Shown: one piece after another, positions 1,075-64,000 of the stretch
Layout of the letters: every line of letters begins with the position of its first letter
Position numbering within the stretch: position 1 is the first letter of the stretch
Notes under the pieces: model-generated
What the model was told of the DNA's origin: nothing
Database searches by the model: none
Seen by the model: only the letters and a program-made list of their open reading frames with translations
Assembly (NCBI GenBank): GCA_030390025.1
Contig: CM059431.1
Location: 123,692,001-123,756,000 of the forward strand
DNA length: 64,000 nt
Source: Squalus acanthias
Lineage: Eukaryota
Reading direction: 5' to 3'
Program-made: the position numbers and the translations under genes

Positions 1075-2693
1075 TGTAGGGGGTGGTGTGGTAGGGGTCA
1101 GCCTCACCTCTGACTTAGTGAGCAGTTCGAATCGCTCCCACGCCCCTGGTTCTAGACCTTGGACTTATTTGGGGGTTGTGAACAAAGATGCAGTAGACAA
1201 CAGGTTTGGATGAAAGAGTTTTGACTTTTATTAAAAGAAAAAGGTAACAAACTTAAAACACACATAACACTTAAACAGGTTGGGGAACACATGGTACAGG
1301 CGAGGGAGAATGACAATATACCAAAAAAAACTTATCCCTCCCAAAAATCCCACTATCTAGCTAAGTTTTGATTTCAGGAGATCAGGGATAATGCTCACCA
1401 AACAGGGGTTTTGACAGTTCGAAATCCACCCAGGTAAGTTGATTGCGATTTTGGGGTACTCTCTTTTTGCCCTTTGGGGCCTGCCGTCCCCACATGGTAC
1501 GGGTCTGTGGAATCTGTGAGGGCTCCTCAGTCGGGTGGAGTCCACAGATGCGGTAGGGCGCGGTTGTGGAATTATCAGGTAAGTACCCGATTTCTTTGCT
1601 TTTAGCTGTAGGTTTAGAGTCTTTGCATGCAAGTCTTACCCAGGGGTAAGCCAGGAGTAGCTGTAGGGTTGGCGATTCTTTGTGTTTCCCCTGGTTGGCT
1701 GATTTAGGTCGTGGTTGCCTGGTGGTTTATCGTTGCGCGGGGCCTTGGTCCCCGCGGTACCTTTGAATGGCGGTCTACCTCGTGGAGCCAATGGTGGCTC
1801 TGGCAGTTGATTTGTTGCATTGGAGGCCTGTCGGGGCTGGACCGTGTGCTGAGCGATGCCGACTCGCTCCCAGTGGTCTCAGCTCTAGCCCTTGCCTGGC
1901 CTTGTCTGTCGCTGCCTCTGATCTCACCCCGGGTCTGCCTCGTGGCCTTGCTGCTTCTCTCCTCCTCCTGCTCGTGTCGTGTAGCCCTCTGTAGCTGTGA
2001 GTAGCTTGCTGTGTGTGCTGGGGGAATAGGCCCTCAATTATACAGTTCCAGGCCCATTGTCTTAGGTTTTGGCGGGCTCGTAAAGTTTTGATGGCTTCAA
2101 CTTTATGTTTATTTGTCCTGATGGCTTCCGATGTCTTCCGTTTAGGCAGGGCCTTTATCTACGCGCCAAATCTCGCCCCCTTTGTCTTAGGTTTTTGGCG
2201 GGCTTGTTAATATGTCCCTGTAGATACTTGGCTAATTGGTTTTTGATGGGGTGATGGGTGTACTGGATGTTTTATTGTTTTCAGGCTTCTAGCATCCTGT
2301 TTGGGCCTGGGGATTTTCAAAAGGGGTCTTGGATTGTTCATTTTTGGATGTGTTTGTGAGGTTTTGGATGAGGCTCTTCCTCTGCTTGGATTGCAGTGCA
2401 AACATTTTCCAGACAGCCTGACTGGGCCCCTATAACCAAAAGCTGTCCACTGCCTCGCCACACCCCTCCTCAGCCTGTCTTGTCTCTGTGAAAGGTGTTT
2501 CTCCCAATAGTAATATCCAAAAGTCATTTTCCTCAGGGGTTTTCTTCCCTGACCCTTAAAAATGTCCAAAACTGAGGTTTTTGCCTCAAATCACTTCATT
2601 TAGGTCCCATCATCCCAAATTCGTATGAAAAATCCAAAAATCACCCCTTTTAGGGTTCTATACGAGTTTCTGGGGAATTTTGCGAAGCCTACA
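1075..2693 (-). mobile_element. Solo LTR, family A copy 1 (1619 bp)
   Basis: TGTAGG...CCTACA termini; 4-bp TSD GTAC (1071-1074, 2694-2697); minus-strand AATAAA at 1227-1232; first ~150 bp nearly identical to 57044 onward; no gag/pol ORF. Confidence 0.9.
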
Positions 2694-20122: not shown

Positions 20123-20751
20123 GGGCTAAAAATTAAGTCGCGCCCCCTTTGGGGCGCTAACTTCCCTACTTTTAGCGCCCCGGAAAAATTAGCGCCCCCA
20201 CAACGGAAATTGAGTGGTAGCGCCCCAAGAGGGAAGCGGGACGCTACTGGAATTGCCCCGCCTCCCTCTTGGGGCACTGCGAGGGAATATCGCGGTGCTA
20301 CATGCCACAGCGCCATGCGCCGCGGCACATAGCGCCGCGGTATTGCAGGACTTCCCCCCCTTCTGAATGGGGAGGGGCCTTGCACAGCGCGGCCCGGGTG
20401 CTGGCAGGCAGCCAGCAACAAAAATGACCGCCCGGCACCTCACCTTTAAATAGCGCCTCCCCGGCCGCAGGTAGGTCCTCCTGACCCCGTCGGACATAGC
20501 GTCCGGCGGTAAGTCAGGAGGCGCTACTGAAGATCGCGGCCGAGGCAAGAGCGGGGCGCTGCGCACGGCAATCACGTCATCGCCGGCGGCGCAGCACCGC
20601 GGGGCGCTATCAGTTACCGCCGCCGCTAACCTCCCGCTGAATTTTGCGGGAGGCGTTGGCGGTGCCGCGCCCGGGCACTAGTTGCTTTGCGCCCCATTAG
20701 TACCCTCTTAGGGCGCTAATGGGAGGCGCAAAGCAACCAAATTTTTCCCCC
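20123..20751 (+). mobile_element. GC/CpG-rich Harbinger-type MITE (family M2), internally deleted
   Basis: TIR GGGCTAAAAATT / AATTTTTCCCCC; TSD TTG; homologous to copies at 39958, 50587 and 63717. Confidence 0.9.
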
Positions 20752-23608: not shown

Positions 23609-24178
23609 TAATGGCTCATTTTATGCTCCAACTTTGATCAAAAGAACTCGGTGAATTAATTTTTCTATTCTCTTCTAGTATTGGGTTTAAAATTCAAAGT
23701 CAGCAAGGGTGCAAAATGGGTGGTATCGTATTAAAGTCAATGTTAAGGGGCATCGGGTGAGATGCATAACGGGCAGCCGATCTGCTACAGCCCGTTTTGA
23801 GCCCCTGCAAAAGTTTAATTTTATCCCCATTATGTCCAGACCAAGCTTTAATTTTTTCAGGTCTGTTGGTCATCCGCATCTCTGCTTTAACAAAACCTCT
23901 GCACTAATGCCCATCTCTTCAATCTCCGCAACCGTGACCCTAAGGGCTCGATTTTACTAATGGAGGCGGGTTGAGGGCTCCTCTAGATCCATCTTTTGTT
24001 TCTTTACTTGTCCCATTAAAACCCCCTTTTGCCTTGCACCATCATCACTTTTGTCGTTTAATCACTCCTGCCTTCGAGGTTTGTTCTTTCCTCCCCCTCC
24101 CCGCTTTCCCTGCCTCTGTACTTGCTTAAAACCTGTTACATCTCTAACTTTTTCCAGTTCTGATGAAGCATTAACTTT

Positions 24179-24388
24179 GGGCTTGATTTTAACATCCCTG
24201 AGGAGGCGGGTTTGGGCTCGATTTTAACAGCCCTGAGGAGGCGGGTTTGGGCTTGATTTTAACAGCCCTGAGGAGGCGGGTTTGGGCTCGATTTTAACAG
24301 CCCTGAGGAGGCGGGTTTGGGCTTGATTTTAACAGCCCTGAGGAGGCGGGTTTGGGCTCGATTTTAACAGCCCTGAGGAGGCGGGTCT
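24179..24388 (+). repeat. Six tandem 35-bp copies of the transposon left end
   Basis: Unit GGGCT(T/C)GATTTTAACAGCCCTGAGGAGGCGGGTTT starting at 24179, 24214, 24249, 24284, 24319, 24354. Confidence 0.95.
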
Positions 24389-25335
24389 GTAGGCGGCTCA
24401 GCTGCTAAAATTGGAAAAAAATGGCTTCAGAGAAACAACCCACCTCCATCCCGCCCCCACGTGATTTTCGGGAGTGTCTGTTCAGCTGCTCCCAAACTGA
24501 CCCGACTCCAACCGGAGGGACAGGTAGTTAAGGCAGTTAAGAGCCTGTTAACTGCCTTGATAATCCTATTTTGACAGAGGTTTCCCATTTTCGTGCCTCT
24601 GGCTCCTGTTTCCCGTCTTGTCAGAAACAATCCTGCTGCAAGGAGGCGAGTTGATGGAGGACATGATCTGTAGTCATTATTGGTGCAGAACTTTATAAGT
24701 TCTCCTGTAACATGGCTGGCATTCAAATGCAACAACTTTGTTGTTGGAAGTTTAGGATAAGATTGGGCAAATCTACTGACCTTGTGACGGGTCAAGCTGA
24801 CACACATCTGCTGTTTGAACTGATTGGGAATAATTTCAGGCCACTTTGAGTGTGCGCTTGCAAGCTTCTTGCCTCAACTGAAATCTATAACAACGGGATG
24901 GGAACCGTTTACATCCTCTCATCCTGGTCATCAGATTCGGAGGAAGAGCAGCGCGGCTTAGTGCTGCCGGATGAACAAGTGACTCAGCACACAGCCTCCT
25001 TGGAGGAAGATGAAGAGGACGAGGAAGAGGACAAGGAGGAGGACGTGGAGTGACGCCTTGCGGGGCCGGATGTGGCCAACCCAGCAGCAGGCGACCACAT
25101 TGCTGGCCGTCAGGCAAAGGATGCTCTCATCCATGCCAGATTTGCGTAAGCTTACACTTCAACCACAGGTGGCTGGCACCTGCAGATGAATATAAGTCCG
25201 ACATTCTCAAAACCCCAGGCATCATCTGTCCAATAAATGGTGGTTTGCGCTCAGTCTCACCACCAACATTCTACATGGACATTGCCCTGAGCCCTCACTC
25301 TTGAACTTCCGTTTCCCAGAACACAGAGGCCACAC

Positions 25336-37975: not shown

Positions 37976-39667
37976 AGCCCATCCACCACCACCCTCCTCC
38001 GCCTGGCTGAACTTGTTCTCACATTGAACAACTTCTCCTTTGACTCCACTCATTTCCTCCAAATCAAAGGTGTTGCTATGAGTACCCGCATGGGTCCTAG
38101 TTATGCCTGGCCTTTTCGTGGGATATGTGGAACACTCTTTGTTCCAGTCCTACTCGGGTCCCCTCCCTCACCTCTTTTTCCAGTACATTGATGACTGTAT
38201 CGGTGCCGTCTCCTGCTCTCGCCCTGAACTAGAAAATTTCATTCACTTTGCTTCCAATTTCCACCCTTCCCTCACCTTCACATGGTCCATCTCTGACTCT
38301 TCCCTTCCCTTCCTCGACTTCTCCGACTCCATCTCTGGGGATAGGTTATTGACAAACATTCACTACAAGCCCACTGACTCCCACAGCTACCTGGACTACA
38401 CTTCCTCCCACCCCGCCTCCTGTAAGGACTCTATTCCATTCTCCCAGTTTCTCCGTCTCCGGCTGCTCTGATGATGCCACCTTCCATACCAGTGCTTCCA
38501 ACATGTCTTCCTTTTTCCTCAACCGAGGATTCCCCTCTACAGGTGGTTGACACGGCCCTCGACCGTGTCCGTTCCATCTCCCGCGCTTCTGCCCTCACCC
38601 CTTCCCCTCCCTCCCGGAACCACGATAGGGTTCCCCTTGTCCTCACCTTTCACCCCACCAGCCTCCACATTCAACGTATCATCCTCCGCCATTTCCGCCA
38701 CCTCCAACGTGATCCCACCACCAAATGCATCTTCCCCTCACCTCCCCTTTCAGCATTCCGTAGGGACCGCTCCCTCTGCGACACCCTAGCCCACTCCTCT
38801 ATCACCCTCAACACCCCTTCCCCTTCGCCCGGCACCTTCCCGTGCAAGCGCAGGAGATGCAACACATGCTCTTATACCTCCCCGCTTCCCACTGTCCAGG
38901 GCCCCAAACACCCCTTCCAGGTGAAAAAGCGATTTACTTGTACTTCTTGCAATTTAGTATACTGTATTCGCTGCTCACGATGTGGTCTCCTCTACATTGG
39001 GGAGACCAAACGCAGATTGGGTGACCACTTTGCAGAACACCTCCGTTCAATCCGTAAGGGGGACCCTGAGCTCCCGGTGGCCTGTCACTTTAATTCACCG
39101 CTTCACTCCCATTCTGACCTCACCGTCCTCGGCCTCTTGCATTGTTCCACGGAAGCTCAGCGTAAGCTCGAGGAACAGCACCTCATCTTTCGATTAGGCA
39201 CTCTACAGCCCTCTGGACTCAACATCGAGTTCAACAATTTCAGATCATAACCTCGACCCCTATCACATATATATATATTTTTTTATCCACACTTTTTGTT
39301 TGGCCTTTTTTCTTCCCTCCCACATGGCAGCTGTCCTTCATTCTGCCAGCACATTTCACACTTCATCTAGAGCCATCCTTTGTTCCTTAACCTGTCATAT
39401 TACCATCTCCTCTTGCCTTGAATATCTCTTAATGTCTCTCAATGTCTCTCAATCTCTCCTGCTTTCTATCCTATCACTGTCCTTCCCTTTTGTTCTTTCA
39501 TCCCCTCCCCCATTTCCCCACCCCTAAACCTGCTTTAAAATCTATTCCATTTCCTGCTTTTTTCCAGTTCTGACGAAAGGTCTTCGACCTGAAACGGTAA
39601 CTCTGTTTCTCTCTCCACAGATGCTGCCTGGCCTGCTGAGTTTTTCCAGCGTTTTCTGTTGTTATTT
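37976..39667 (+). mobile_element. Penelope-like element copy 1 (RT + GIY-YIG), 5'-truncated and frameshifted
   Basis: QIKGVAMSTRMGP, FQYIDD, CKRRRCNTC, LVYCIRCSRCGLLYIGET, EEQHLIFRLGTLQPSGLN; stop at 39250; terminal repeat with mutated hammerhead core 39566-39602. Confidence 0.95.
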
Positions 39668-39669
39668 GC

Positions 39670-42600
39670 AGGAAGACTTCCCTACTTTTATAATCGATCC
39701 CCCTTGAAATAAAGGCCAACATTCCATTTGCCTTCCTAATTACTTGCTGCACCTGCATGTTAACTTTTTGTGTTTCATGTACGAGGACACCCAAAACCTT
39801 CTGTACCGCTGCATTCTGTAGTCTTTCTCCACTTCAATATTTTTCTTTTCTATTCTTCCTACCAAAGTGGATAACTTCACATTTTCACACATTATACTCC
39901 ATCTGCCAAATTCTTGCCCACTCACTTAACCTATCTATATCTCTTTGCAGACTCTTTGGGGGCAAAATTGGGTCGCGCCCCCTTTGTGGCACTAACTTCG
40001 CTACTTTAGCGCCCCGAAAAAGTTAGCGCCCCCGCGCCCGAGATTCACTGGTAGCGCCCCAAGAGGGAGGCAGGGCGCTACTGGAAGTGCCTCACCTCCA
40101 TCTTGGGGCACTGTGAGTGAATATCGCGCACTGCGACACGTCGCACCGCGGTACTGCAGGCCTTCCTCACCTTATAAAGGGGAGGGGCCGAGCACAGCAT
40201 GACCCGGGGCCCAGCTGGGCCACCAGGGATCGGAGGGCCGGCAAAAGAGCTCAGCACTCAAGAGGAGTGCCGGGCTCACGGAGCACAGCTAGCACCCTGC
40301 AAGGGGGGGGGTGGGGGCGCTTCACAGGAGGCCGGGGACAGCAACGGGGGCAGGCACTGGCAGGCGACCAGCAACAAAAATGGCCACCCGGCACCTCCCC
40401 TTTAATTTGCACAGCCCCGGCCGCACGTACGCCCCCCTGACCGTGTCAGACATGGCGTCTGGCGGTAGGCCAAGGGGCGCTACCGAAGATCGTGGCCGCG
40501 TGAGCGAGGCACTGCACACGGTGATGACGTTATCGCCGGAGGCGCAGCGCTGTGGGGCTCTAACGGTTACCACCGCCGCTAACCTCCCGCTGAATTTCGC
40601 GGGAGGCATTAGCAGCACCGCCCCCGGGCGCTAGTTGCTTTGCGTCCCATTAGCGCCCTCTTAGGGCGCTAACAGGAGGTGCAAACATCCAAATTTGTCC
40701 CCCTTTATGTCCTCCTCACAACTTGCTTTCCCACCTATCTTTGTATCATCCACAAATTTGGCTACAATACACTCGCGTCCTTCATCCAAGTCATTAATAT
40801 AGATTGAAAATGGTTGAGGCCACAGCACTGATCCCTGTGGCACCCCACTAGTTGCAGACTGCCATCCTGAAAATGACCCATTTATCTCGACTCTCTGTTT
40901 TCTATTAGTTAACCAATCCTCTATCCAATCTAATATATTACCCCCAACACCACGAGCTCTTATCTTATGCAATAACCTTTTATGTGGCACCTTGTCGAAT
41001 GCCTTTTGTAAATCCAAATACACTACATCTACTGGTTCCCCTTTATCCACCCTGCTCAATACCTCATCAAAGAACTCTAATAGATTTGTCAAACACGATT
41101 TCCCTTTCATAAAACCATGTTGACTCTGTTTGATTGTATTATGATTTTCTAAATGCCCTGCTACTACTTCCTTAATAATGGATTCGCACATTTTGCCAAT
41201 GACAGATGTTAGGCTAACTGGCCTATAATTTCCTGCTTTCTGTCTCCCTCCTTTTTTGAATAAGGGCGTTACATTTGCGGTTTTCCAATCCGCTGGAACT
41301 TTTCCAGAGTCAAGGGAATTTTGGAAGATTACAACCAATGCCTCCACTATCCATTATCACTGCAGCCACTTCTTTTAAGACCCTAGGATGCAGGCCATCA
41401 GGTCCAGGGGACTTGTCAGCCTTTAGACCCATAATTTTACCTAGCACTTTTTCTCTAGTGATAGTGATTGTATTAAGTTCCTCCCTCCCTTTTGCCCCTT
41501 GATTTTCTACTACTTTTGGGATGTTTTTAGTGTCCTCTACTATGAAGACAGATACAAAATATTTGTTCAATGCCTTAGCCTTTTCCTTGTTCCCCATTAT
41601 TATTTCCCCAGTCTCGTCCTCTAAGGGACCAACATTTACTTTAGCTACTCTCTTCCTTTTTATATAATTGTAGAAGCTCTTACTGGCAGTTTTTATATTT
41701 CTTGCTAGTTTACTCTCATAAGCTATTTTCTCCCTCTTTATTATTTTTTTAGTCATCCTTTGCTGGTTTCTAAAAATTTCCCAATCTTCTGGCCTACCAC
41801 TAATCTTTGCAACATTGGATGCCTTTTCTTTCAATTTGATACCATCCTTAACTTCCTTGGTTAACCATGGTTGGTTCATCCTTCTCTTCGAGTCTTTCTT
41901 TCTCACTGAAATATATCTTTGTTGAGAGTCATGAAATATCTCTTTAAATGTCTGCCACTGATTTTCTACTACCTTACCTTCTAATCTATTTTCCCAGTCC
42001 ACTTTAGACAACTCTCTCCTCATACCTTTGTAATTGCCTTTATTTAAGTTTAATACTCCAGTTTCAGACCCAAGTTTCTCACCTTCAAACTGAATTTGAA
42101 ATTCCAACATGTTATGATCACTCTTCCCCAGAGGATCCTTTACTATGAGATCATTAATTAATCCTGTTTCATTACACATCACCAGATCTAAAATAGCCTG
42201 TTCCCTGGTTGGTTCCACAATGTATTGTTCCAAGAAACTGTCCTGAATACACTCTATGAACTCATCCTCAAGGCTGCTATTGCCAATTTGATTTGTCCAA
42301 TCTATATGAAGATTAAAATTGCCCACGATTATTGCACTCCTTTCTTACAAGTCCCCATTATTTCTTGATTTATACTCTGTCCTATAGTGTAGCTACTGTT
42401 AGGGGGCCTATAGACTACTCCCACCAGTGCCTTCTTTCCCTTACAATTTCTTACCTCCAGCCCAAATTGATTCTACATCTGGAACGTCCGAGCCAAGATC
42501 ATTTCTCACTATTGTACTGATCTCATCCTTTATTAACAGAGCTACGCCACCTCCTTTTCCTTTCTGTCTATCCTTCCGAAATGTCAAATAACCCTGAATA

Positions 42601-47118: not shown

Positions 47119-49258
47119 TGTAAAGTTTCGCAATTATCGCGATTCAAAATAACGAGAGAGAAGCAGATTCGTTTGATCAGTTTATTTAAACGAAATGCTG
47201 TCATGATTAAAAAGGACACAGAAGCCTGTAAAATGGCTGCCGCGCATCGTGGCAGAAGCTTCCAGAATTACAGTGGGCAGACAAGATGGCGTTCGAATAA
47301 ACATTTCAATATAAGACTGGATCATACTCGATAAACACTGATAAAGACAGGATGCAACCTGTTTGCATTCGAAACAATAGCAAAAGATATGAGTGCTGGA
47401 ATCGTTTTCCATGCACAAGTAAGGACCATTGTACTGGGCAATCGAAGGCCCATCCAGACACAGCAATACACATATACCCCCACGGCTCTACAATGAGAGA
47501 GCCATTCTCGGGTGATTAAACAAGTATTCAGGGGCCCCCAAAACCAGTCAGGGAGACGATTCATACGATCCTGGCTGGGTCAACAATGGGGAAAACATTA
47601 ACGGGTAGTTGGCCAGTTTCAGGTGCTACCGAAACCCGTTAAAGACAAGAATCGCCCCATGCTGGGAGTTTTGAGTGCCAATATTTCACAAAGGACAAAC
47701 ATTAAGATTTGGGCGGGAGATAAGGGAACACAGCACTATAACTATAGTGAACAAATGTCCATCGCTCTCTTATTTCTCTTGTCCTTATCCTCGGGTATCG
47801 CTCTGCTGGACGAGCAGCCTTTTGTGTTTCTCTGGACTTTGCTGACTTTTTGACTTTTAGCCGTACTGGTCGGTTATTCGAATGTTGGGTGGAGCTCAAA
47901 CGGAACGAGCCGCCTCGACAAGGGCAAGTGACCGGGTGCACCATCCCGAGGGTCGGTAAATGGTGTCTGGACCCGAAGGCCCAACAAGACAAGACGAGAC
48001 GAGAAGAAAAGAAGAAGAATCCACGTGCCGCCGCGGTCAGTAAACGCCGTCCACGCCCGAAATTATAGGACTCATTTTTGAATTCTACAGGTTATTGCAT
48101 GAACCAGTTTTGGGTCCATCGAACTCCTCATAACAACAACAAAGACTCTTCTTTGAATTCTACCGACAACTGGTGTCGGTACAGGAAGACTTTTCTTTGA
48201 GTTCTACAGCCGGGCCCGAGTTCTGTCGAGTTCTTCATGACAACGGGGAGCCCGGCCTGCTTGTCGCAGCAGCGAAGATAAACAAGTGGGGTACAGAGAC
48301 CCCTCCAAACACGTGACAGTCAGGCGTTGCAGCGAACGAGCCGAGTGCCTCACTTTAAAATTTTCCGAAGTATCACGAGTGGTGAGCATGTTTCCCGATC
48401 CTACAAATCTAGATGTAGTGTAGGTATTGATAAGGAAGGGTGGTTTTATTAAGGATAAAGTATAATGTGTTTCCCTTTTTACGATGTGCCGTGCGTTCTT
48501 CATTACCATAGACCAAGCTTTATGAATGTATGTATACTTGTACTCTCGTTAATTTGTGCCTATGACATGTACTTCATGATTTTGGACGCTATAGAAACAT
48601 AGAAACATAGAATCTAGGAGCAGGAGTAGGCCATTCGGCCCGTCGAGCCTGCTCCGCCATTCAATACGATCATGGCTGATCATCCAAATCCAGTACCCTG
48701 TCCCTGCTTTAATCCCCACAGTACACATATCCCACCCTACCCCCGTAACCCCACGTATTTAATTCCCCCTAACATATCCCATCCTATCCCCATAACCCCA
48801 CATATTTAATCCCCCCTAACACTAAGGGTCAATTTATCATAGCCAAATCAACCTAACCCACACATTTTTGGACTGTGGGAGGAAACCGGAGCACCCGGAG
48901 GAAACCCACGCAGACACGGGGAGAATGTGCAAACTCCACACAGACAGTCACCCTAGGTCAGATTCGAACCCGGGTCTCTGGCGCTGTGAGGCACCAGTGC
49001 TAACCACTATGCCACCGTGTTGCCCAATGCAATAAAGATTTCCATTTCGTACTATTCAACCGGGTCTATTTGAGTTTTTCTCTGCATTACTGCTCTCGCA
49101 CCTAAGTCCAGTGTTAGAACCGTAAGGGTCGAACCACTCACAGGTGCTTATTGCAACAAGGCTGGCCGGAGACCAGAGCAAGCAATAGTATTAGGCAACG
49201 AAGGCCTAACCTCGCACCAGCAGTGTCTGCGATACAAGCACGACAAAAAACCCTTACA
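47119..49258 (+). mobile_element. Solo LTR, family B copy 1 (~1.7 kb plus a SINE insertion)
   Basis: TGTAAAG...CCCTTACA; 4-bp TSD TGCT (47115-47118, 49259-49262); TATAA at 47737; AATAAA at 49031; reverse-complement homolog of 62153-63716. Confidence 0.9.
48591..49025 (-). mobile_element. HE1-like V-SINE (tRNA head, V-domain, CR1-derived tail)
   Basis: Head GGGCAACACGGTGGCATAGTGG...GGTTCGAAT; V-domain GGGTTTCCTCCGGGTGCTCCGGTTTCCTCCCACA; tail matches CR1 26857-26970; absent from the other B LTR. Confidence 0.92.
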
Positions 49259-50586: not shown

Positions 50587-51336
50587 GGGGGAAAAATTCA
50601 GCTGCTTGCGCCTCCCGTTAGCGCCTTAAGAGGGCGCTAATGGGGCGTAAAGCAGCTAACGCCCGGGCGCAGCGCCGCCCACGCCTCCCGTAAAATTCAG
50701 CGGGAGGTTAGCGGTGGCGCCAGCCGGTAGCGCCCTGTGGCGCTGCGCCGCCGGCGATGACGTCATCGCCGTGCGCAGCACCCCGCTCGCGCTCCAGCCG
50801 CGATCTTCAGTCGCGCCCCCTGATTTACCGTCAGACACTATGTCCGACGGGTTCAGGGAGGCGTACGTGCGGCCGGGGCGGCGATATTTAAAGGGGAGGT
50901 GGCAGGTGGCCATTTTTGTTGCTGGCCGCCTGCCAGCACCTGCCCCCGTTGCTGTCCCCGGCCCCCGTGAAGCCCCCCCACCGTGAAGTGCCGGCTGCGC
51001 TCCAAGAGCCCGGCACTTCTCTTGAGTGCCGGGCTCTTTTGCCGGCACTCCCGATCCCTGGGGGCCCAGCTGGGCCCCGGTTCGCGCTGCGCAGGGTCCC
51101 TCCCCTTTAAGAAGGGGAGGAAGGCCTGCAATACCGCGGCGCGACGTGCCACAGCGCCTGGATATTCCCTCGCAGCGCCCAAGAGGGATGCGGGGTGCTT
51201 CCAGTGGCGCCCCGCTTCCCTCTTGGGGCGCAACCACTGAAGTTCCGGCGCGGGGCCGCTAATTTTTTCGGGGCGCTAAAAGTAGCGCCCTGGCGAGGTT
51301 AGCGCCCCAAATGGGGCGCGACTCAATTTTCAGCCC
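50587..51336 (-). mobile_element. MITE family M2 copy (750 bp)
   Basis: TIR GGGGGAAAAATT / AATTTTCAGCCC; TSD TTT. Confidence 0.92.
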
Positions 51337-51449: not shown

Positions 51450-53350
51450 TTCTATTTTTTCTCCCACCTACATCCGCGACTCTTCCGACACCCTCCGCCA
51501 CTTTAACAGTTTCCAGCTTCCTGGCCCCAACCGCCTCCTTTTCACTATGGACGTACAATCCCTCTACACCTCCATCCCCCACCAGGTTTACCTGAGGGCG
51601 CTCCGCTTCTTCCTTGAACAGAGGCCCAACCAGTCCCCATCCACCACCACCCTCCTCCGCCTGGCTGAACTTGTTCTCACATTGAACAACTTCTCCTTTG
51701 ACTCCACTCATTTCCTCCAAATCAAAGGTGTTGCTATGGGTACCCGCATGGGTCCTAGCTATGCCTGCCTTTTTGTGGGATATGTGGAACACTCTTTGTT
51801 CCAGTCCTACTCGGGTCCCCTCCCTCACCTCTTTTTCCAGTACATTGATGACTGTATCGGTGCCGTTTCCTGCTCTCGCCCTGAACTAGAAAATTTCATT
51901 CACTTTGCTTCCAATTTCCACCCTTCCCTCACCTTCACATGGTCCATCTCCGACTCTTCTCTTCCCTTCCTCGTCTTCTCGTCTCCATCTCTGGGGATAG
52001 GTTATTGACTAACATTCACTACAAGCCCACTGACACCCACAGCTACCTGGACTACACTTCCTCCCACCCCGCCTCCTGTAAGGACTCTATTCCATTCTCC
52101 CAGTTTCTCCGTCTCCGCCGCATCTGCTCTAATGATGCCACCTTCCATACCAGTGCTTCCAACATGTCTTCTTTTTTTCCTCAACCGAGGATCCCCCTCT
52201 ACTGTGGTTGACACGGCCCTCAACCGTGTCCGTTCTATTTCCTGCACTTCTGCCCTCACCCCTGACCCTCCCTCCCGGAACCACGATAGAGTTCCCCTTG
52301 TCCTCACCTTTCACCCCACCAGCCTCCACATTCAACGGATCATCCGCCGCCATTTTCGCCACCTCCAGCGTGATCCCACCAGCAAACGCATCTTCCCCTC
52401 ACCTCCCCTTTCAGCATTCCGTAGGGACCGCTCCCTCCGCAACACCCTAGTCCACTCCTCTACCACCCCCAGCACCCCATCCCCTTTGCCTGGCACCTTC
52501 CCGTGCAAGCGCAGGAGATGCAACACATGCCCTTATACCTCCCCCTTTCCCACTGTCCTGGGCCCCAAACACCCCTTCCAGGTGAAACAGCGATTTACTT
52601 GTACTTCTTGCAATTTAGTATACTGTATACGCTGCTCACGATGTGGTCTCCTCTACTCTGGGGAGACCAAATGCAGATTGGGTGACAGCATTGCGGAACA
52701 CCTCCGTTCAGTCTGTAAGGGGGACCCTGAGCTTCCAGTTGCCTGTCACTTTAATTCACCGCTCCATTCCCACTCAGACCTCACCGTCCTCGGCCTCTTG
52801 CATTGTTCCATGGAGGCTCAGCGTAAGCTCGAGGAACAGCACCTCATCTTTCGATTAGGCACCCTACAGCCCTCTGGACTCAACATAGAGTTCAACAATT
52901 TCAGATCATAACCTCGGCTCCTATCACACATATATATTTTTTATCCACACTTTTTGTTTGTGCCTTTTTTTCTTCCCTCCCACATGGCAGCTGTCCTTCG
53001 GTCTGCCAGCGCAATTCACACTTCATCTAGAGCCATCCTTTGTTCCTTAACCTGTCCCATTACCACCTCCTCTTGCCTTGAATATCTCTTAATGCCTCTT
53101 TACTTCTCCTGCCTTCCATCCTATCACTGACCTTCGCTTTTGTTCTTTCATCCCCTCCCCCATTTCCCAGCCCCTAAACCTGCTTTAAAATCTGTTCCCT
53201 TTCCTGCTTTTCTCCAGTTCTGACGAAAGGTCTTCGACCTGAAACGTTAACTCTGTTTCTCTCTCCACGGATGCTGCCTGGCCTGCTGAGTTTTTCCAGC
53301 ATTTTCTGTTGTTATTTCGGATTTCCAGCATCCGCAATATTTTGCGATTG
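51450..53350 (+). mobile_element. Penelope-like element copy 2 (RT + GIY-YIG), 5'-truncated and frameshifted
   Basis: PTYIRDSSD, FTMDVQSLYTSIPH, GVAMGTRMGPSYA, YIDD, LVYCIRC...LYSGET; stop at 52911; collinear and highly similar to 37976-39667. Confidence 0.95.
53216..53252 (+). ncRNA. Minimal hammerhead ribozyme motif in the Penelope terminal repeat
   Basis: AGUU-CUGACGA-AGGUC-UUC-GACCU-GAAA-CGUU-AACU. Confidence 0.8.
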
Positions 53351-53634: not shown

Positions 53635-53839
53635 CTTAAAGAAGTAGATACATTGTTAGTATTGTGAGAGACAGCAACATCTGTTAACAATTCTTGCAGT
53701 GCATTGTTTACAATGGAATGAAAATCGGACAGATTCTAGAATGAGCAGTTGTTGAAGTTAGATGCCAGGATAGAATTGGTAGGCATGGAGTAAATATAAT
53801 GTCTCTGATCAGTCTGGCTGTTCATAGAATCATAGAATC

Positions 53840-54287
53840 ATAGAAACATAGAAACTAGGAGCAGGAGTAGGCCATTCGGCCCGTCGAGCCTGCTCCACCA
53901 TTCAATACGATCATGGCTGATCATCCAAATCCAGTACCCTGTCCCTGCTTTCTTCACACAGAATCCCCATCGAGCCTGCACCGACACATATCCCACCCTA
54001 TCCCCTTAACCCCACGTATTTAATTCCCCCTAACATATCCCATCCTATCCCCGTAACCCCACATATTTACTCCCCCCCTAACACTAAGGGTCAATTTATC
54101 ATAGCCAAATCAACCTAACCCGCACATTTTTGGACTGTGGGAGGAAACCGGAGCACCCGGAGGAAACCCACGCAGACACAGGGAGAATGTGCAAACTCCA
54201 CACAGACAGTCACCCGAGGCCAGATTCGAACCCGGGTCCCTGGCGCTGTGAGGCACCAGTGCTAACCACTATGCCACCGTGTTGCCC
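53840..54287 (-). mobile_element. HE1-like V-SINE inserted in the CR1 tail microsatellite
   Basis: Closely similar to 48591-49025; host CATAGAAT repeats on the left and TAGAATGGTTACAGC on the right. Confidence 0.9.
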
Positions 54288-55739: not shown

Positions 55740-58654
55740 AGCTGCAAATTTAATGGAGGAGGCGGGATGGTGGCGGGGGAGCTGGTTTTCGGGATCCGGT
55801 CCCGCTCCCAGCTGCAGCTGCTCTGCAAACGTGATCTTCCCTTGATTGGCCTTGTTAAGCCTGCCCTGCGGACTTCCCGGCCAATTAACAGGAAGCGGGT
55901 CTGATGATGTCATTTGATGACACATCATCAACCGGTTTCCTTAAAGGGACCACGTCCACATGGAGTTTGACAGTTGTTCTGTCAGTGTTTGACAGCATTG
56001 AGATACTGCAAACACTGACAAGCTCTGTACAAAGGTGAACTCTTGCACCCAGACTCTCCAATGATTCCCTCCACATGTTTATGGAGGGAATCACAGCACG
56101 CAGGAAGGTTCTCTTCCCTTCCAAGAGCGGAAGAGACCTCCCCAGGACACCAACTTACCTTGCTCCTCCACCCAACCCTCTCTATCTACTTTATCACTTC
56201 CCCATCTCACTAGCCACCCCTCACACTCACATTCATCCTACTGCAAGAATACCAACTAACAACACACAAGAGTAGGCACTTGAGAGGTTTAGCCAATGTC
56301 CATGTGAAGTTTCTGGTAATGTGTTGTCATACAGTGAAATCTCTTTTTCCAAAAGTGCCTCTATTGGACGGATCTGAGCGCACCTTGAGAAGAGTCTTAC
56401 TGAGTTCCAGTGATTGTTCAGTCATAACTTCCCGCCCCCTCCCACTATAGCGATGAGTGTGCATGGAATGGCTTGGACATTAAAGGGATGCTTCACGGTG
56501 CTAGTGTGGGATTGTGTCAACCTGGCGCATCATGTGGCAGCCAAAGTTTACAGTGTCAAGTGAAGAAAATCTGGCCATGGTGATGCCATCGCTGGCCTCC
56601 CGTGCAGCAATGTTGTCAGGGGCTGATGGCCTGTGTCCAGTGCAGCATCAGGTGATGGCGGAAAAGGTTGGTGATATTGATGGTGATGTTGGTGTTGGGG
56701 CTGATCGTGGAAGGATTCGGAGGACCAAGGTCTGATTGTTTCAATGGCACCGATGTTGCTGCAATAGATGGCAGCTGCAGGTGAGATGACAGAAGTGATC
56801 TGTCAATGGTGAGAGAGGTTGTCCCAATGAGATGACACTGGACATACAGTTCGATCTAAAATCTTGTAAGCTAAAGAAATCTCTATATGTATTAAAAATG
56901 CTGTAACCAACATTTTCTGCGCTCTGAAACTGACCATCTGCAACAGGGCATCCTTTACACCACTTCTGCAGCTGTCAGCTTTTCACAAACATCAGAGCAG
57001 ACTCAAAACACACCAGGTTGAGCTGGCGTGTTCCCCAAACAGCTGTAGGGGGTGGTGTGGTAGGGTCAGCTTCACCTCTGACTCAGTGAGCAGTTCGAAT
57101 CGCTCCCACGCCCCTGGTTCTAGACCTTGGACTTATTTGGTGGTCGTGAACAAAGGTGCAGTAGACAATAGGTTTTGATGAAAGAATTTCGATCTTTATT
57201 CAAGAAAGTAAAACACAACACAAATACTTAAGTACACGTGAGGGAAATAACATTAGAAGAATACTTCACCCCTCCCAATCACACTTCACTAGCTAGGTTG
57301 GACTCTGGAGAACCAGGGATAATGCTCACCAAACAAATCCTTGACAGTTGAGAGTTAGGGTTTAGAGTCTTTTGAGTAAAAGCTTTCATAAGGCCCTTGT
57401 TGCCGCGAGGTGTCCGATGGTCACTGAGGCGGTCGCTCTGGTCTCTTCTTGCGTGTCGGCCTACTTCTGGAGCTGTTGGCTTTCTTTGTTGAACTGCTTT
57501 CTGTTTAAACTGTCTTCTTCCGAGTTGTGGAACTGCCTTCTTGCAGAACTGTGGAAACTGTCTTCTGCCTGCTTGTTGAACTTGAACTGTTTTACTGGAG
57601 AACTCCCTTCTTACTGAACTGTCTTCTTTAACTGCCCAACTTGCTTCTCCTGAACTCTGTAATTCCAGCACTGACTTCTGCTGAAAAACAGGCTTTCAAA
57701 GTGAACTGCAGAACTGCCTTCTGTTGAACTTGAACTGTTGTTCCTGGTTTTTTTGAACTTGTAACTCTTGAAAAACTGCTGAACTGCTTGATGGGCCTTC
57801 AATTATACTAAATTGAAGTGGCCTTATCAAAACCAAATCAAATCCCGGTCATTGTAAGACCTCATTAACAGTAACGACTTTACTAGCGTGTTAACTGGTT
57901 TTGTAAATGTGTGAAGTGGTTTCAGGATAGCTCCATCCTGTCGATCTGTTGTTTAATCGGAGTTTGAATTGTCCTCATGTTTTGGGTTTCTTGACTGCGC
58001 CTTGGACTTCGATCGAATATTTGCTTTATGCATGTCTTTAATGGGTTCTGTAAACGGTTTGATGGGGCCTGTTGGTTTGGGTGGGACTGTCTTCTCCTAG
58101 GGTCTATTGTCAAAATGTTAATGCATGCTGGGGCTTTGAGTGAGGTCATTCCGGTTACCCAGACATTGCAATTAACTGCAATACCCAAACTGCTTTTACA
58201 GAGGTCGAACCCAACTTCCTTCGCAGCCTTTTCTCCCTTTACAGGCCCAGACATGTTTTTAAAATGCCAAAACTTGGTTTTTGGTCTTAAATTCCTTAGG
58301 TTAGGCCCAAATGCATTTTTATCACTCTGAGTTAGTTCCAAAGTCCTTTTTCCTTAGGTTTTGGGGATCTGCAAATTTTGGAAACCTTACACAGCGGGTA
58401 ACCCGTGGGGGAGAGCGTAAAATTAGAAGTAAGCCTCAAAATACTCTTAAATTTATTTTAGCAAGCATTTAACAGTCTAAATTGAAACGCCCGCCGTTTG
58501 GTGTCGGGTCAGTTCTCCGCTGACAGACCCGACACCTGGGAGACTCGTGTGGAGGCGGGTTGACAACAGGTTTCCGACCCACTGTCAATCTTTGCTATTT
58601 TGACAGCAGACCCACCTCCAAACCCACCCCCTGAGCGCTATTAAATTCACGGCC
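55740..58654. mobile_element. Deleted Harbinger-type element inside CR1, hosting an LTR
   Basis: Imperfect TIR AGCTGCAAATTT / AAATTCACGGCC; TSD TAT; Myb-like start APRLSNDSLHMFMEGITARRKVLFP near 56045-56120. Confidence 0.75.
57044..58391 (-). mobile_element. Solo LTR, family A copy 2 (1348 bp)
   Basis: TGTAGG...CCTTACA; 4-bp TSD CAGC (57040-57043, 58392-58395); minus-strand AATAAA at 57195-57200. Confidence 0.9.
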
Positions 58655-62152: not shown

Positions 62153-63716
62153 TGTAAGGGGTCACGGTACTGGTGCGAGGTGAGGCCTTCGTTGCCTATA
62201 CTATTGCTTGCTCTGGTCTCCGGCCAGACTTTTTGCAATAAGCACCTGTGAGTGGTTCGACCCACTCGCCCTTACGGTTCTGACACCTGGACTTAGATGC
62301 AAGGCGCAGTAATGCAGAGAAAAGACTCAAATAGACCAGGTTGAATAGCACAAAATGAATATCTTTATTGCATGGCGTCTAAAATCATGAAATACATGTC
62401 ATAGGCGCAGATCAAAGAGAGTACAAGTATACACACGTTCATAAAACTTGGTCTATGGAAATGGGGAACACACGACACATCGTAAAAGGGGGAACACATT
62501 ATACATTAACCTTAGAAAACCACCCTCCCTTAATATACCTAAACTACGTCTGGATTTGTAGGATCAGAAAACATGCTCACCACTCGGCTCACTTCGGAAA
62601 TTTAAAGTGAGGCACTCAGCTTGTTTTGCTACAGCGCCTGATCGTCACGTGGTTGTAAGAGTTTCTGCACCCTACTTGTTTACTCTCGCTGCCGCGAAAG
62701 GTAAGCCAGATTCCCCGATGTCATGAAGTGGTCGATGGATTCAGACCGGATCGTGGAGTAGTCCGTAGAATTCAAAGATGGATTCTGTCATTATATCTTC
62801 GGGCGTGGTCGGGGTTTACTGACCGCGGCAGCACGTGGAATTTCTTCTCGTCTTTCTTCTGGTTGCTCGGGCCTCTGGGTCCGGACACCGTTTACCGACG
62901 CTCGGGATGGTGTACCCTGTTACTTGCCCTGTCGAGGCGGCTCGTTCCGATTGAGCTCCACCCAACACTCGAATAACCGACCAGCACGGCGAAAAGTCAA
63001 GAGCCAAGAGAGCCCGAGAGGGTCCAGCCCGAGAGAGAGAGAGAGTCAAGGAAGAGCCCAGGAAGAGAGAGAGAGCGATGGACATTTGTTCCCTATAGTT
63101 ATACTGCTTTGTCGGCCTTATCTCCCGCTCAAATCTAAACGTTTATTCTTTGTGTGATTTTGGCGCCCAAAACTCCCAGCATGGGGCGATTATCTTCTTA
63201 ACGGGTTTCGGTAACACCTGAAACTGGCCAACTATCCGTTAATACCTTCTCCATTGTTGAGCCAGCCAGGATGTGTATGAATCGTCTCCTCGACTGGTTT
63301 TGGGGCCCCCCGAATACTGGCTTAATCACCCGCCAATGTCTCTCTCATTGTTGAGCCGGGGGGGTATTTGTGTATTGATGTGTCTGGATGGGTTCTCGAT
63401 GGCCCAGTTCAATGATCCTTACTGTGCGTATGAAACGATTCCAGCACTTATATCATTGTTATTGTCCAGGATGCAAACGGGTTGCATCCTGCCTTTTCAA
63501 TGTGTACCGAGTATGATCCGATCTCATACTGAATGTATATTCGACGCCATCTTGTCTGCCCACTGTGTCTCTGGAAGCTTCTGCCACGATGCGCGGCGGC
63601 CATTTTACAGGCTTCTGTGTCCTTTATTATCAGGGCAGCATTTCGTTTAATAAAAATGATCAATTGAACCTGCTTCTCTCATATTATTTTGAATCGCGAT
63701 AATTGCGAAACTCTAC
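62153..63716 (-). mobile_element. LTR, family B copy 2 (terminal base displaced by a MITE)
   Basis: Begins TGTAAGGG, ends GCGAAACTCTAC; reverse complement of 47119-49258 without the SINE; minus-strand AATAAA at 62364-62369; right TSD outside the window. Confidence 0.88.
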
Positions 63717-64000
63717 GGGGGAAAAATTCAGCTGCTTGCGCCTCCCGTTAGCGCCTTAAATGGGCGCTAATGGGGCGTAAAGCAGCTAACGCCCGGGCGC
63801 AGCGCTGCCCACGCCTCCCGAAAAATTTAGTGGGAGGTTAGCGGCGGCGGCAGCCGGTAGCGCCCTGTGGCGCTGCGCCGCCGGCGATGACGTCATCGCC
63901 GTGCGCAGCGCCCCGCTCGCGCCCCGGCCGTGATCTTCAGTCGCGCCCCCTGATTTACCGCCAGACGCTATGTCCGACGGGTTCAGGGGGGCGTACGTGC
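63717..64000 (-). mobile_element. MITE family M2 copy, runs off the window
   Basis: Closely similar to 50587-50870. Confidence 0.9.

Follow-up and report, generated by a model that had tools for sequence, protein, structure and literature searches.

Primer-activation pairing is a well-known class of mechanism. For the avian sarcoma and leukosis viruses, a U5-TΨC loop interaction and a U5-IR stem and loop were described (Aiyar 1992, Morris 2002, cited in PMC3185550 and PMC3601003). The primer activation signal (PAS) of HIV-1 pairs with the T-arm of its primer, a model that is disputed (PMC3185550), and contacts of the T-stem and the anticodon loop upstream of the PBS are described for HIV-2 (PMC3185550). 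A PAS was reported for all retroviral genomes examined, according to PMC11181671.

The window, by which the whole 64,000-nt stretch of DNA analysed here is meant, holds four LTRs of two families (A and B) that share a box near one end. We consider it probable, at roughly 60%, that this U5 box is a docking hairpin of the U5-TΨC/PAS type for a candidate tRNA-Arg primer, helping to select or activate the primer. Relative to the avian U5-TΨC interaction, the candidate primer here is tRNA-Arg and the pairing is putative, the 11-base site includes a bulge, and the site sits in a hairpin loop inside a closing stem. As in HIV-1 and HIV-2, it would complement the 5′ strand of the T-arm of the candidate primer and is partly hidden in a stem (PMC11181671 and PMC3185550). 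The HIV-1 PAS, in contrast, comprises 8 nt in a long-range helix (PMC11181671), whereas the present site spans T-stem and T loop and lies in a local hairpin. Family B could also meet the anticodon loop through a second loop, which would resemble the contacts described for HIV-2 in PMC3185550. No description of such an element in fish or shark LTRs was found in listings of open-access literature, and PMC12193657 does not give the primer identity of the snakehead retrovirus.

Each stretch singled out by the original prediction proved to be one end, the same in every case, of an element 1.35-1.7 kb long. The four elements, termed A1, A2, B1 and B2, have the following features:

1075-2693, sense strand probably minus: solo LTR A1, 1619 nt, TGT..ACA ends, GTAC on either side.
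57044-58391, minus strand: solo LTR A2, 1348 nt, CAGC on either side; box at 57044-57135, hairpin at 57088-57105.
62153-63716, minus strand: LTR B1, its far end interrupted at 63717 by another repeat.
47119-49258, plus strand: solo LTR B2, 2140 nt including a 434-nt insertion at 48593-49026, TGCT on either side; box at 49103-49258.
1227-1232, minus strand: poly(A) signal AATAAA of A1, with an equivalent site in all four copies.
2037-2042, minus strand: TATA-like TATAAT of A1, in a context matched in A2 (57802-57807).
1391-1400 (A1, minus strand), 57322-57331, 62573-62582 and the B2 equivalent: 10-mer common to all four LTRs, exact in each.

The LTRs start with TGTA in all four copies and finish with TACA in the three complete ones. 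Target duplications of 4 bp accompany TGT..ACA ends in three of the four, the far end of B1 having been lost to the insertion. On the strand opposite the T-loop motif, AATAAA lies 150-225 nt from the box-bearing end in every copy, and because of this strand and position that end is taken to be U5. By their anatomy, the four elements are most readily read as solo LTRs in which the box-bearing end is U5. None of the ten ORFs inside the LTRs reached the Pfam cut-off, and no internal (gag-pol) region is present inside the 64-kb window, where all four copies are solo. In A1 and A2, a TATA-like site lies on the AATAAA strand 600-800 nt further in, a position that would imply a long R region in family A. 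This putative R region (57500-57790 and 1775-2030; 600-800 nt) is purine-rich on the sense strand, contains short repeats in A2, and is only ~49% identical between A1 and A2.

The shared 10-mer is found 127-209 nt upstream of AATAAA in A1, A2 and B1, and on the sense strand it resembles a 5′ splice site. In foamy viruses, a 5′ splice site suppresses polyadenylation at the 5′ LTR, and by analogy the 10-mer could suppress polyadenylation at the 5′ LTR here.

Other repeats interrupt or surround these LTRs. The insertion at 48593-49026 inside B2 consists of a LINE tail and a tRNA-derived SINE, with a similar copy at 53832-54287; although box A is perfect in the head of this SINE, no tRNA model was reached at E 10. 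A GC-rich repeat family with internal palindromes occurs at 63717-64000, 50587-50940, 20397-20751 and 40357-40705, and one of its copies truncates the far end of B1 one base inside the terminus. Two copies of a further repeat (37978-39667 and 51636-53317), 93% identical and with broken reading frames, resemble by eye a Penelope-type RT with a GIY-YIG nuclease. A tandem array of about eight 35-nt units occupies 24141-24420.

The joint pattern of the box (GTTCGA, GGTTCT and TGGACTTA) has four matches in the window, one per LTR, and the letters of one motif pair within it are identical in all four copies:

1125-1167, plus strand: joint-pattern match in A1.
57093-57135, plus strand: joint-pattern match in A2.
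62255-62295, plus strand: joint-pattern match in B1.
49103-49134, minus strand: joint-pattern match in B2.
1148-1167, minus strand: invariant motif pair of A1, sense AAGTCCA ... AGAACC.

In 100 shuffles the pattern gave a mean of 0.00 and a largest count of 0, against the 4 observed, a contrast that is inflated and shows recurrence only, because the pattern was written from these same copies. That the box is common to the four copies of both families, as originally proposed, is borne out by this count. The families had also been described as otherwise unalike, which proved incorrect: A and B1 align above shuffles in the box (z 3.7-3.8) and outside it as well (z 4.5 and 3.6 over 216-307 nt). 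From AATAAA to the shared 10-mer the alignment reaches z 6.4 and 3.7, the next 400 nt are unaligned (z 0.9 and 0.7), and the last 300 align weakly (z 2.4 and 0.9). The families are therefore regarded as distant relatives that share the box by descent.

Better conservation of the box than of its flanks was found in family A, where A1 and A2 are 97% identical in the box (90 of 93 columns) versus 86, 62, 49 and 48% in four other segments. It was not found in family B, in which the box (77% between B1 and B2) falls below three of the four other segments (86, 83, 54 and 84%). Family A is abundant: 2515, 230, 769 and 170 matching contigs were obtained from four runs (organisms A, A, C and E) out of 20 belonging to eight studies. 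Summed depth, which does not equal copy number, peaks at 1146-1207 in three of these runs and at 1332-1393 in the fourth. Joint-motif matches were also sought in three contig collections, with 0 in viral_contigs, 11 in metagenome_contigs and 3 in genome_contigs; the 14 were dismissed as chance because none has an LTR end, a hairpin or BLAST similarity to the window.

Read on the antisense strand, the core of the box in B1 and B2 consists of TGAG, one extra pyrimidine, and GGTTCGA; in A1 and A2, an A replaces the first G of this core. At the corresponding position 1124, G is the majority among contigs in all four runs (in run X1, 85 contigs with 298,575 of 317,977 summed depth), while both window copies have A. 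Because this is a CpG position of the commoner form, the A was left unused as strand evidence.

Read on this strand, which is not the one that carries the poly(A) signal, the core is identical to positions 48-58 of tRNA-Arg(UCG/CCG) except for one extra base. In family A the match runs on to position 61, and the letters shared between the families end after A58, where the would-be PBS pairing starts. A human tRNA-Arg(TCG) segment, 39-61, with the matching T-arm is printed in the primer table of PMC11980442. Among 261 human tRNA sequences (supplement 5 of PMC13023127; a human set and not that of the host, with 60-letter line breaks that may mask matches in long tRNAs), the core T-arm occurs in five, all of them Arg (TCG-2, -3, -4, -5 and CCG-1). 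The heptamer GGTTCGA is unbroken in 144 of the same 261, and five of the 144 carry the core T-arm. Since GGTTCGA is common to most tRNAs, specificity rests on four bases and an allowed bulge. Unbroken 9-base matches point to other tRNAs, namely tRNA-Sec for family B, and Asn-GTT-10 and Val-AAC-4 for the commoner form of A.

Because the core is the complement of tRNA-Arg 48-58, the U5 RNA could pair over 11 bases with a part of such a primer that a PBS would leave free. An 11-bp duplex with one bulge is predicted between sense U5 and this part of tRNA-Arg in all four copies, even in B2 with its broken hairpin. Families A and B differ at the base that bulges out of this duplex, and within the hairpin stem that base covaries (C-G in A, T-A in B). 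The sites and a second tRNA-like loop are placed as follows:

1119-1130, minus strand: anti-T-arm site of A1, within the hairpin 1120-1137 (5-bp stem, 8-nt loop).
62249-62260, minus strand: anti-T-arm site of B1, 11-bp one-bulge duplex, -15.3 kcal/mol.
62187-62193 (B1) and 49197-49203 (B2), antisense: CTTCGTT loop with TCG in the anticodon place, absent from family A.

The predicted duplex energies (-12.3 kcal/mol in A, -15.3 in both B1 and B2) are unremarkable. Among 1024 possible T-arm probes, the duplex ranks 139 (A1/A2), 14 (B1), 10 (B2) and 42 jointly; the site is the best of its LTR in one copy of four (B1), and 22 of 12,796 windows of the 64 kb, in about eight separate places, beat the B duplex. 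Weaker hints toward tRNA-Arg come from two other matches. The 7-nt loop of family B exposes, in sense, CGAAG, the complement of tRNA-Arg(UCG) 32-36, and positions 1109-1115 of A1, on the plus strand, equal the anticodon arm of tRNA-Arg(UCG) at 27-33. This 7-mer match is not significant alone, the 7-mer being found in 13 of the 261 human tRNAs, with Arg-ACG, Arg-TCG and Trp among the matches listed.

Of the two options left by the original prediction, primer activation gains support from the complementarity of the core to tRNA-Arg(UCG/CCG) 48-58 and from the bulging of the family-variable base. In the full-length RNA, the PBS after the LTR end would take tRNA positions 59-76, which would free the 5′ strand of the T-arm (48-58). 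Pairing would then begin between the T loop and the exposed loop of the U5 hairpin, whose 5-bp stem would yield to the 11-bp duplex; in this way the primer would be selected and activated. A role like that of the avian U5-IR stem would fall to the closing stem, which would keep the site near the PBS, and the tRNA-like look of the antisense strand would be the mirror image of complementarity to the primer. The PBS itself was not seen, the four copies being solo, and the loose ends before 1075 were mixed (agreement 0.4), with no common PBS among those listed. An Arg-type PBS scan of viral_contigs returned 24 loci, which were rejected because in none of them was there an RT motif, an AATAAA further upstream or any resemblance to the window; eight of them carry ARAGORN tRNA genes.

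The T-loop hairpin consists of a 5-bp stem and an 8-nt loop, with 4, 4, 5 and 3 of the 5 pairs formed in A1, A2, B1 and B2, respectively. It is intact in three of four copies, with one compensated pair between the families. In the tRNA register (5-bp stem, 7-nt loop), just two of five pairs form in each of the four copies; the hairpin of the original prediction is therefore real as a 5-bp stem in three copies, but not as a tRNA T-arm. The hairpin quoted for B2 actually belongs to B1, at 62250-62267, whereas the copy at 49104-49258 lacks the 3′ arm: eight bases are gone from B2, and the anti-T-arm site is intact. The closing stem, which stops 1-3 nt short of the LTR end, stays paired with different letters in A and B, in agreement with the proposal that pairing with the LTR terminus is kept despite changed letters. 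In A1, the remaining elements of the fold, neither assigned to a strand, are:

1078-1086 with 1138-1147: closing stem around two hairpins, with a single base bulged; it stops 3 nt short of the LTR end.
1097-1114: inner hairpin, 5-bp core and 8-nt loop.

Predicted folding does not single out one strand. The T-loop hairpin on the sense strand, in 200-nt context, reached 0.90, 0.95 and 1.00 in the three intact copies, compared with 0.11, 0.19 and 0.99 on the antisense strand; the stem probability of the site hairpin in A1 is 0.90 sense and 0.11 antisense. The closing stem favours the antisense strand in three of four copies (0.64-0.93 versus 0.03-0.33 sense; in A1 ~0.65 on plus and 0.33 on minus). 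Strand evidence is mixed, because the hairpin favours sense and the closing stem antisense. As RNA, sense folds are slightly lower than antisense folds in all four copies. The inner hairpin has an occupancy of 0.08 on plus and 0.11 on minus in A1, and 0.61 on plus in A2. Short folds of the GGTTC..GGACT part show a G.U hairpin, whose occupancy on plus in 200-nt context is 0.00-0.13. The mini-cloverleaf drawn for family A is the minimum-energy fold of A2 and not that of A1.

The description of the box as structured fits family B marginally (z -1.45 to -2.26), while for family A shuffled sequences fold equally well (T-loop strand, z +0.47 and +0.52; sense strand, z -0.35 and -0.73). A z about 0 in family A would be expected if the box had no function and reflected shared ancestry together with chance folding in a G-rich stretch; likewise, the window has 70 GTTCRA sites, of which 8 form four or five of the five pairs in the same register, five of these outside the boxes. 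Such an account is hardly credible, given that the A box stays 97% identical while flanks drop to 48-62% and that pairs are compensated between the families.

The same compensation would suit a U5 element with a structural role alone: a multi-branch fold by the attachment site that serves packaging, strand transfer or protein binding, with a loop that looks like a T loop but does not pair with the primer. The closing stem and the hairpin keep their pairing with changed letters, the duplex energy is ordinary, and the PBS segment of HIV-1 is described as containing a three-way junction, the tRNA-like hairpin of which is recognised through its shape (PMC11181671). However, the loop letters are invariant between families, beyond what mere pairing would ask, the invariant letters extend 5′ exactly along the Arg T-arm, and B2 retains the site where the stem is lost, which makes a structural role without primer pairing unlikely.

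The other option of the original prediction, an antisense tRNA-like or B-box module, would make the box a captured, degenerate antisense tRNA gene that supplies a B box (TFIIIC) or a small antisense RNA, as a long-LTR counterpart of Helenus. Its best layout is in B1:

62154-62275, plus strand (antisense): tRNA-like layout with 7-bp closing stem, TGGT loop, CTTCGTT loop, long arm, and the T-loop hairpin 62250-62267.

The B-box consensus is present in all four copies, tRNA parts stand in tRNA order, the 7-nt loop of B holds TCG where an anticodon would be, and the closing stem is antisense-favoured in three of four copies. In family A, an A box with two mismatches stands 41 nt ahead of the B box, and no T4 run precedes the latter. 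In Rfam, both B copies match the tRNA-Sec model as their best hit (B1 15.5 bits, E 1.6; B2 14.4 bits, E 6, at 49153-49235, without the T loop). These scores are far under the gathering score of 47 bits and are no better than the chance matches of a control stretch, where unrelated Rfam families appeared at E 0.46 and 2.4, so that only the identity of the family, tRNA-Sec, is notable. Nothing reached gathering score in Rfam, family A had no match to the tRNA clan even below threshold, and ARAGORN found no tRNA. Counted against the full box A consensus, mismatches number two in A and at least three in B, compared with 0 in the tRNA-derived SINE of the window, which served as control. In B1 the B box comes after a T5 run, none of the four copies keeps the register of a T-arm, and the orientation is the reverse of that of the poly(A) signal. 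The antisense option is weakened by these results, its B box standing in every copy and its A box and T-arm register failing, and we regard it as unlikely.

The resemblance to Helenus (TRIMp3) is partial. Both have tRNA-like sequence in the LTR with the B-box GGTTC and, in animals, a 4-bp target duplication (Kojima 2024, PMC10886601). Helenus LTRs are at most 323 bp long and keep box A (PMC10886601), whereas those described here measure 1348-1706 nt, box A fails in B, and, unlike in Helenus, the tRNA-like sequence and the poly(A) signal lie on different strands. Membership in Helenus/TRIMp3 was rejected on LTR length and box A, the B box being present in 4/4; a term search of PMC10886601 found no mention of sharks.

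Captured tRNA and docking may also be combined. The sense RNA would then grip tRNA-Arg(UCG) at both the T and the anticodon loops, and the antisense strand, as minus strong-stop DNA or as a product of Pol III, would fold as a degenerate tRNA, with its TCG loop and a working B box, derived from the element's own primer captured into U5. The U3/R of HIV-1 holds a sequence like a tRNA-Lys3 gene, which is tied to strand transfer; there too the LTR antisense resembles the element's own primer tRNA, although in U3/R. This combined account appears quite unlikely as a whole; capture of the primer as origin and docking as function are mutually compatible.

Docking of tRNA-Arg, the preferred reading, leaves the AAGTCCA..AGAACC part without explanation. 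Self-priming would account for it: the invariant sense AAGTCCA, which ends in CCA in all four copies, would form the 3′ terminus of a primer that is released from the element's transcript by a cut guided by the enclosed fold, and the PBS would be complementary to this sequence. The bin that holds AAGTCCA has the highest summed depth in three of four runs. Tf1 self-primes from the 5′ end of its transcript. Unlike in Tf1, the site here lies downstream of AATAAA and not at the transcript 5′ end, and the distance from AAGTCCA to the LTR end is 92 nt in A but 143 and 156 nt in the two B copies; self-priming is very improbable.

Related LTRs could be traced by the box as a short marker, and such U5 ends can pass for tRNA genes or SINE heads. 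If the docking of a tRNA-Arg primer is true, primer-activation pairing, for which avian viruses and HIV have been the main subjects and which is still contested in them, would extend to an abundant lineage of LTRs in a genome that looks like that of a cartilaginous fish. The many diverged families of this lineage would provide a clean natural test of whether the site changes with the primer.
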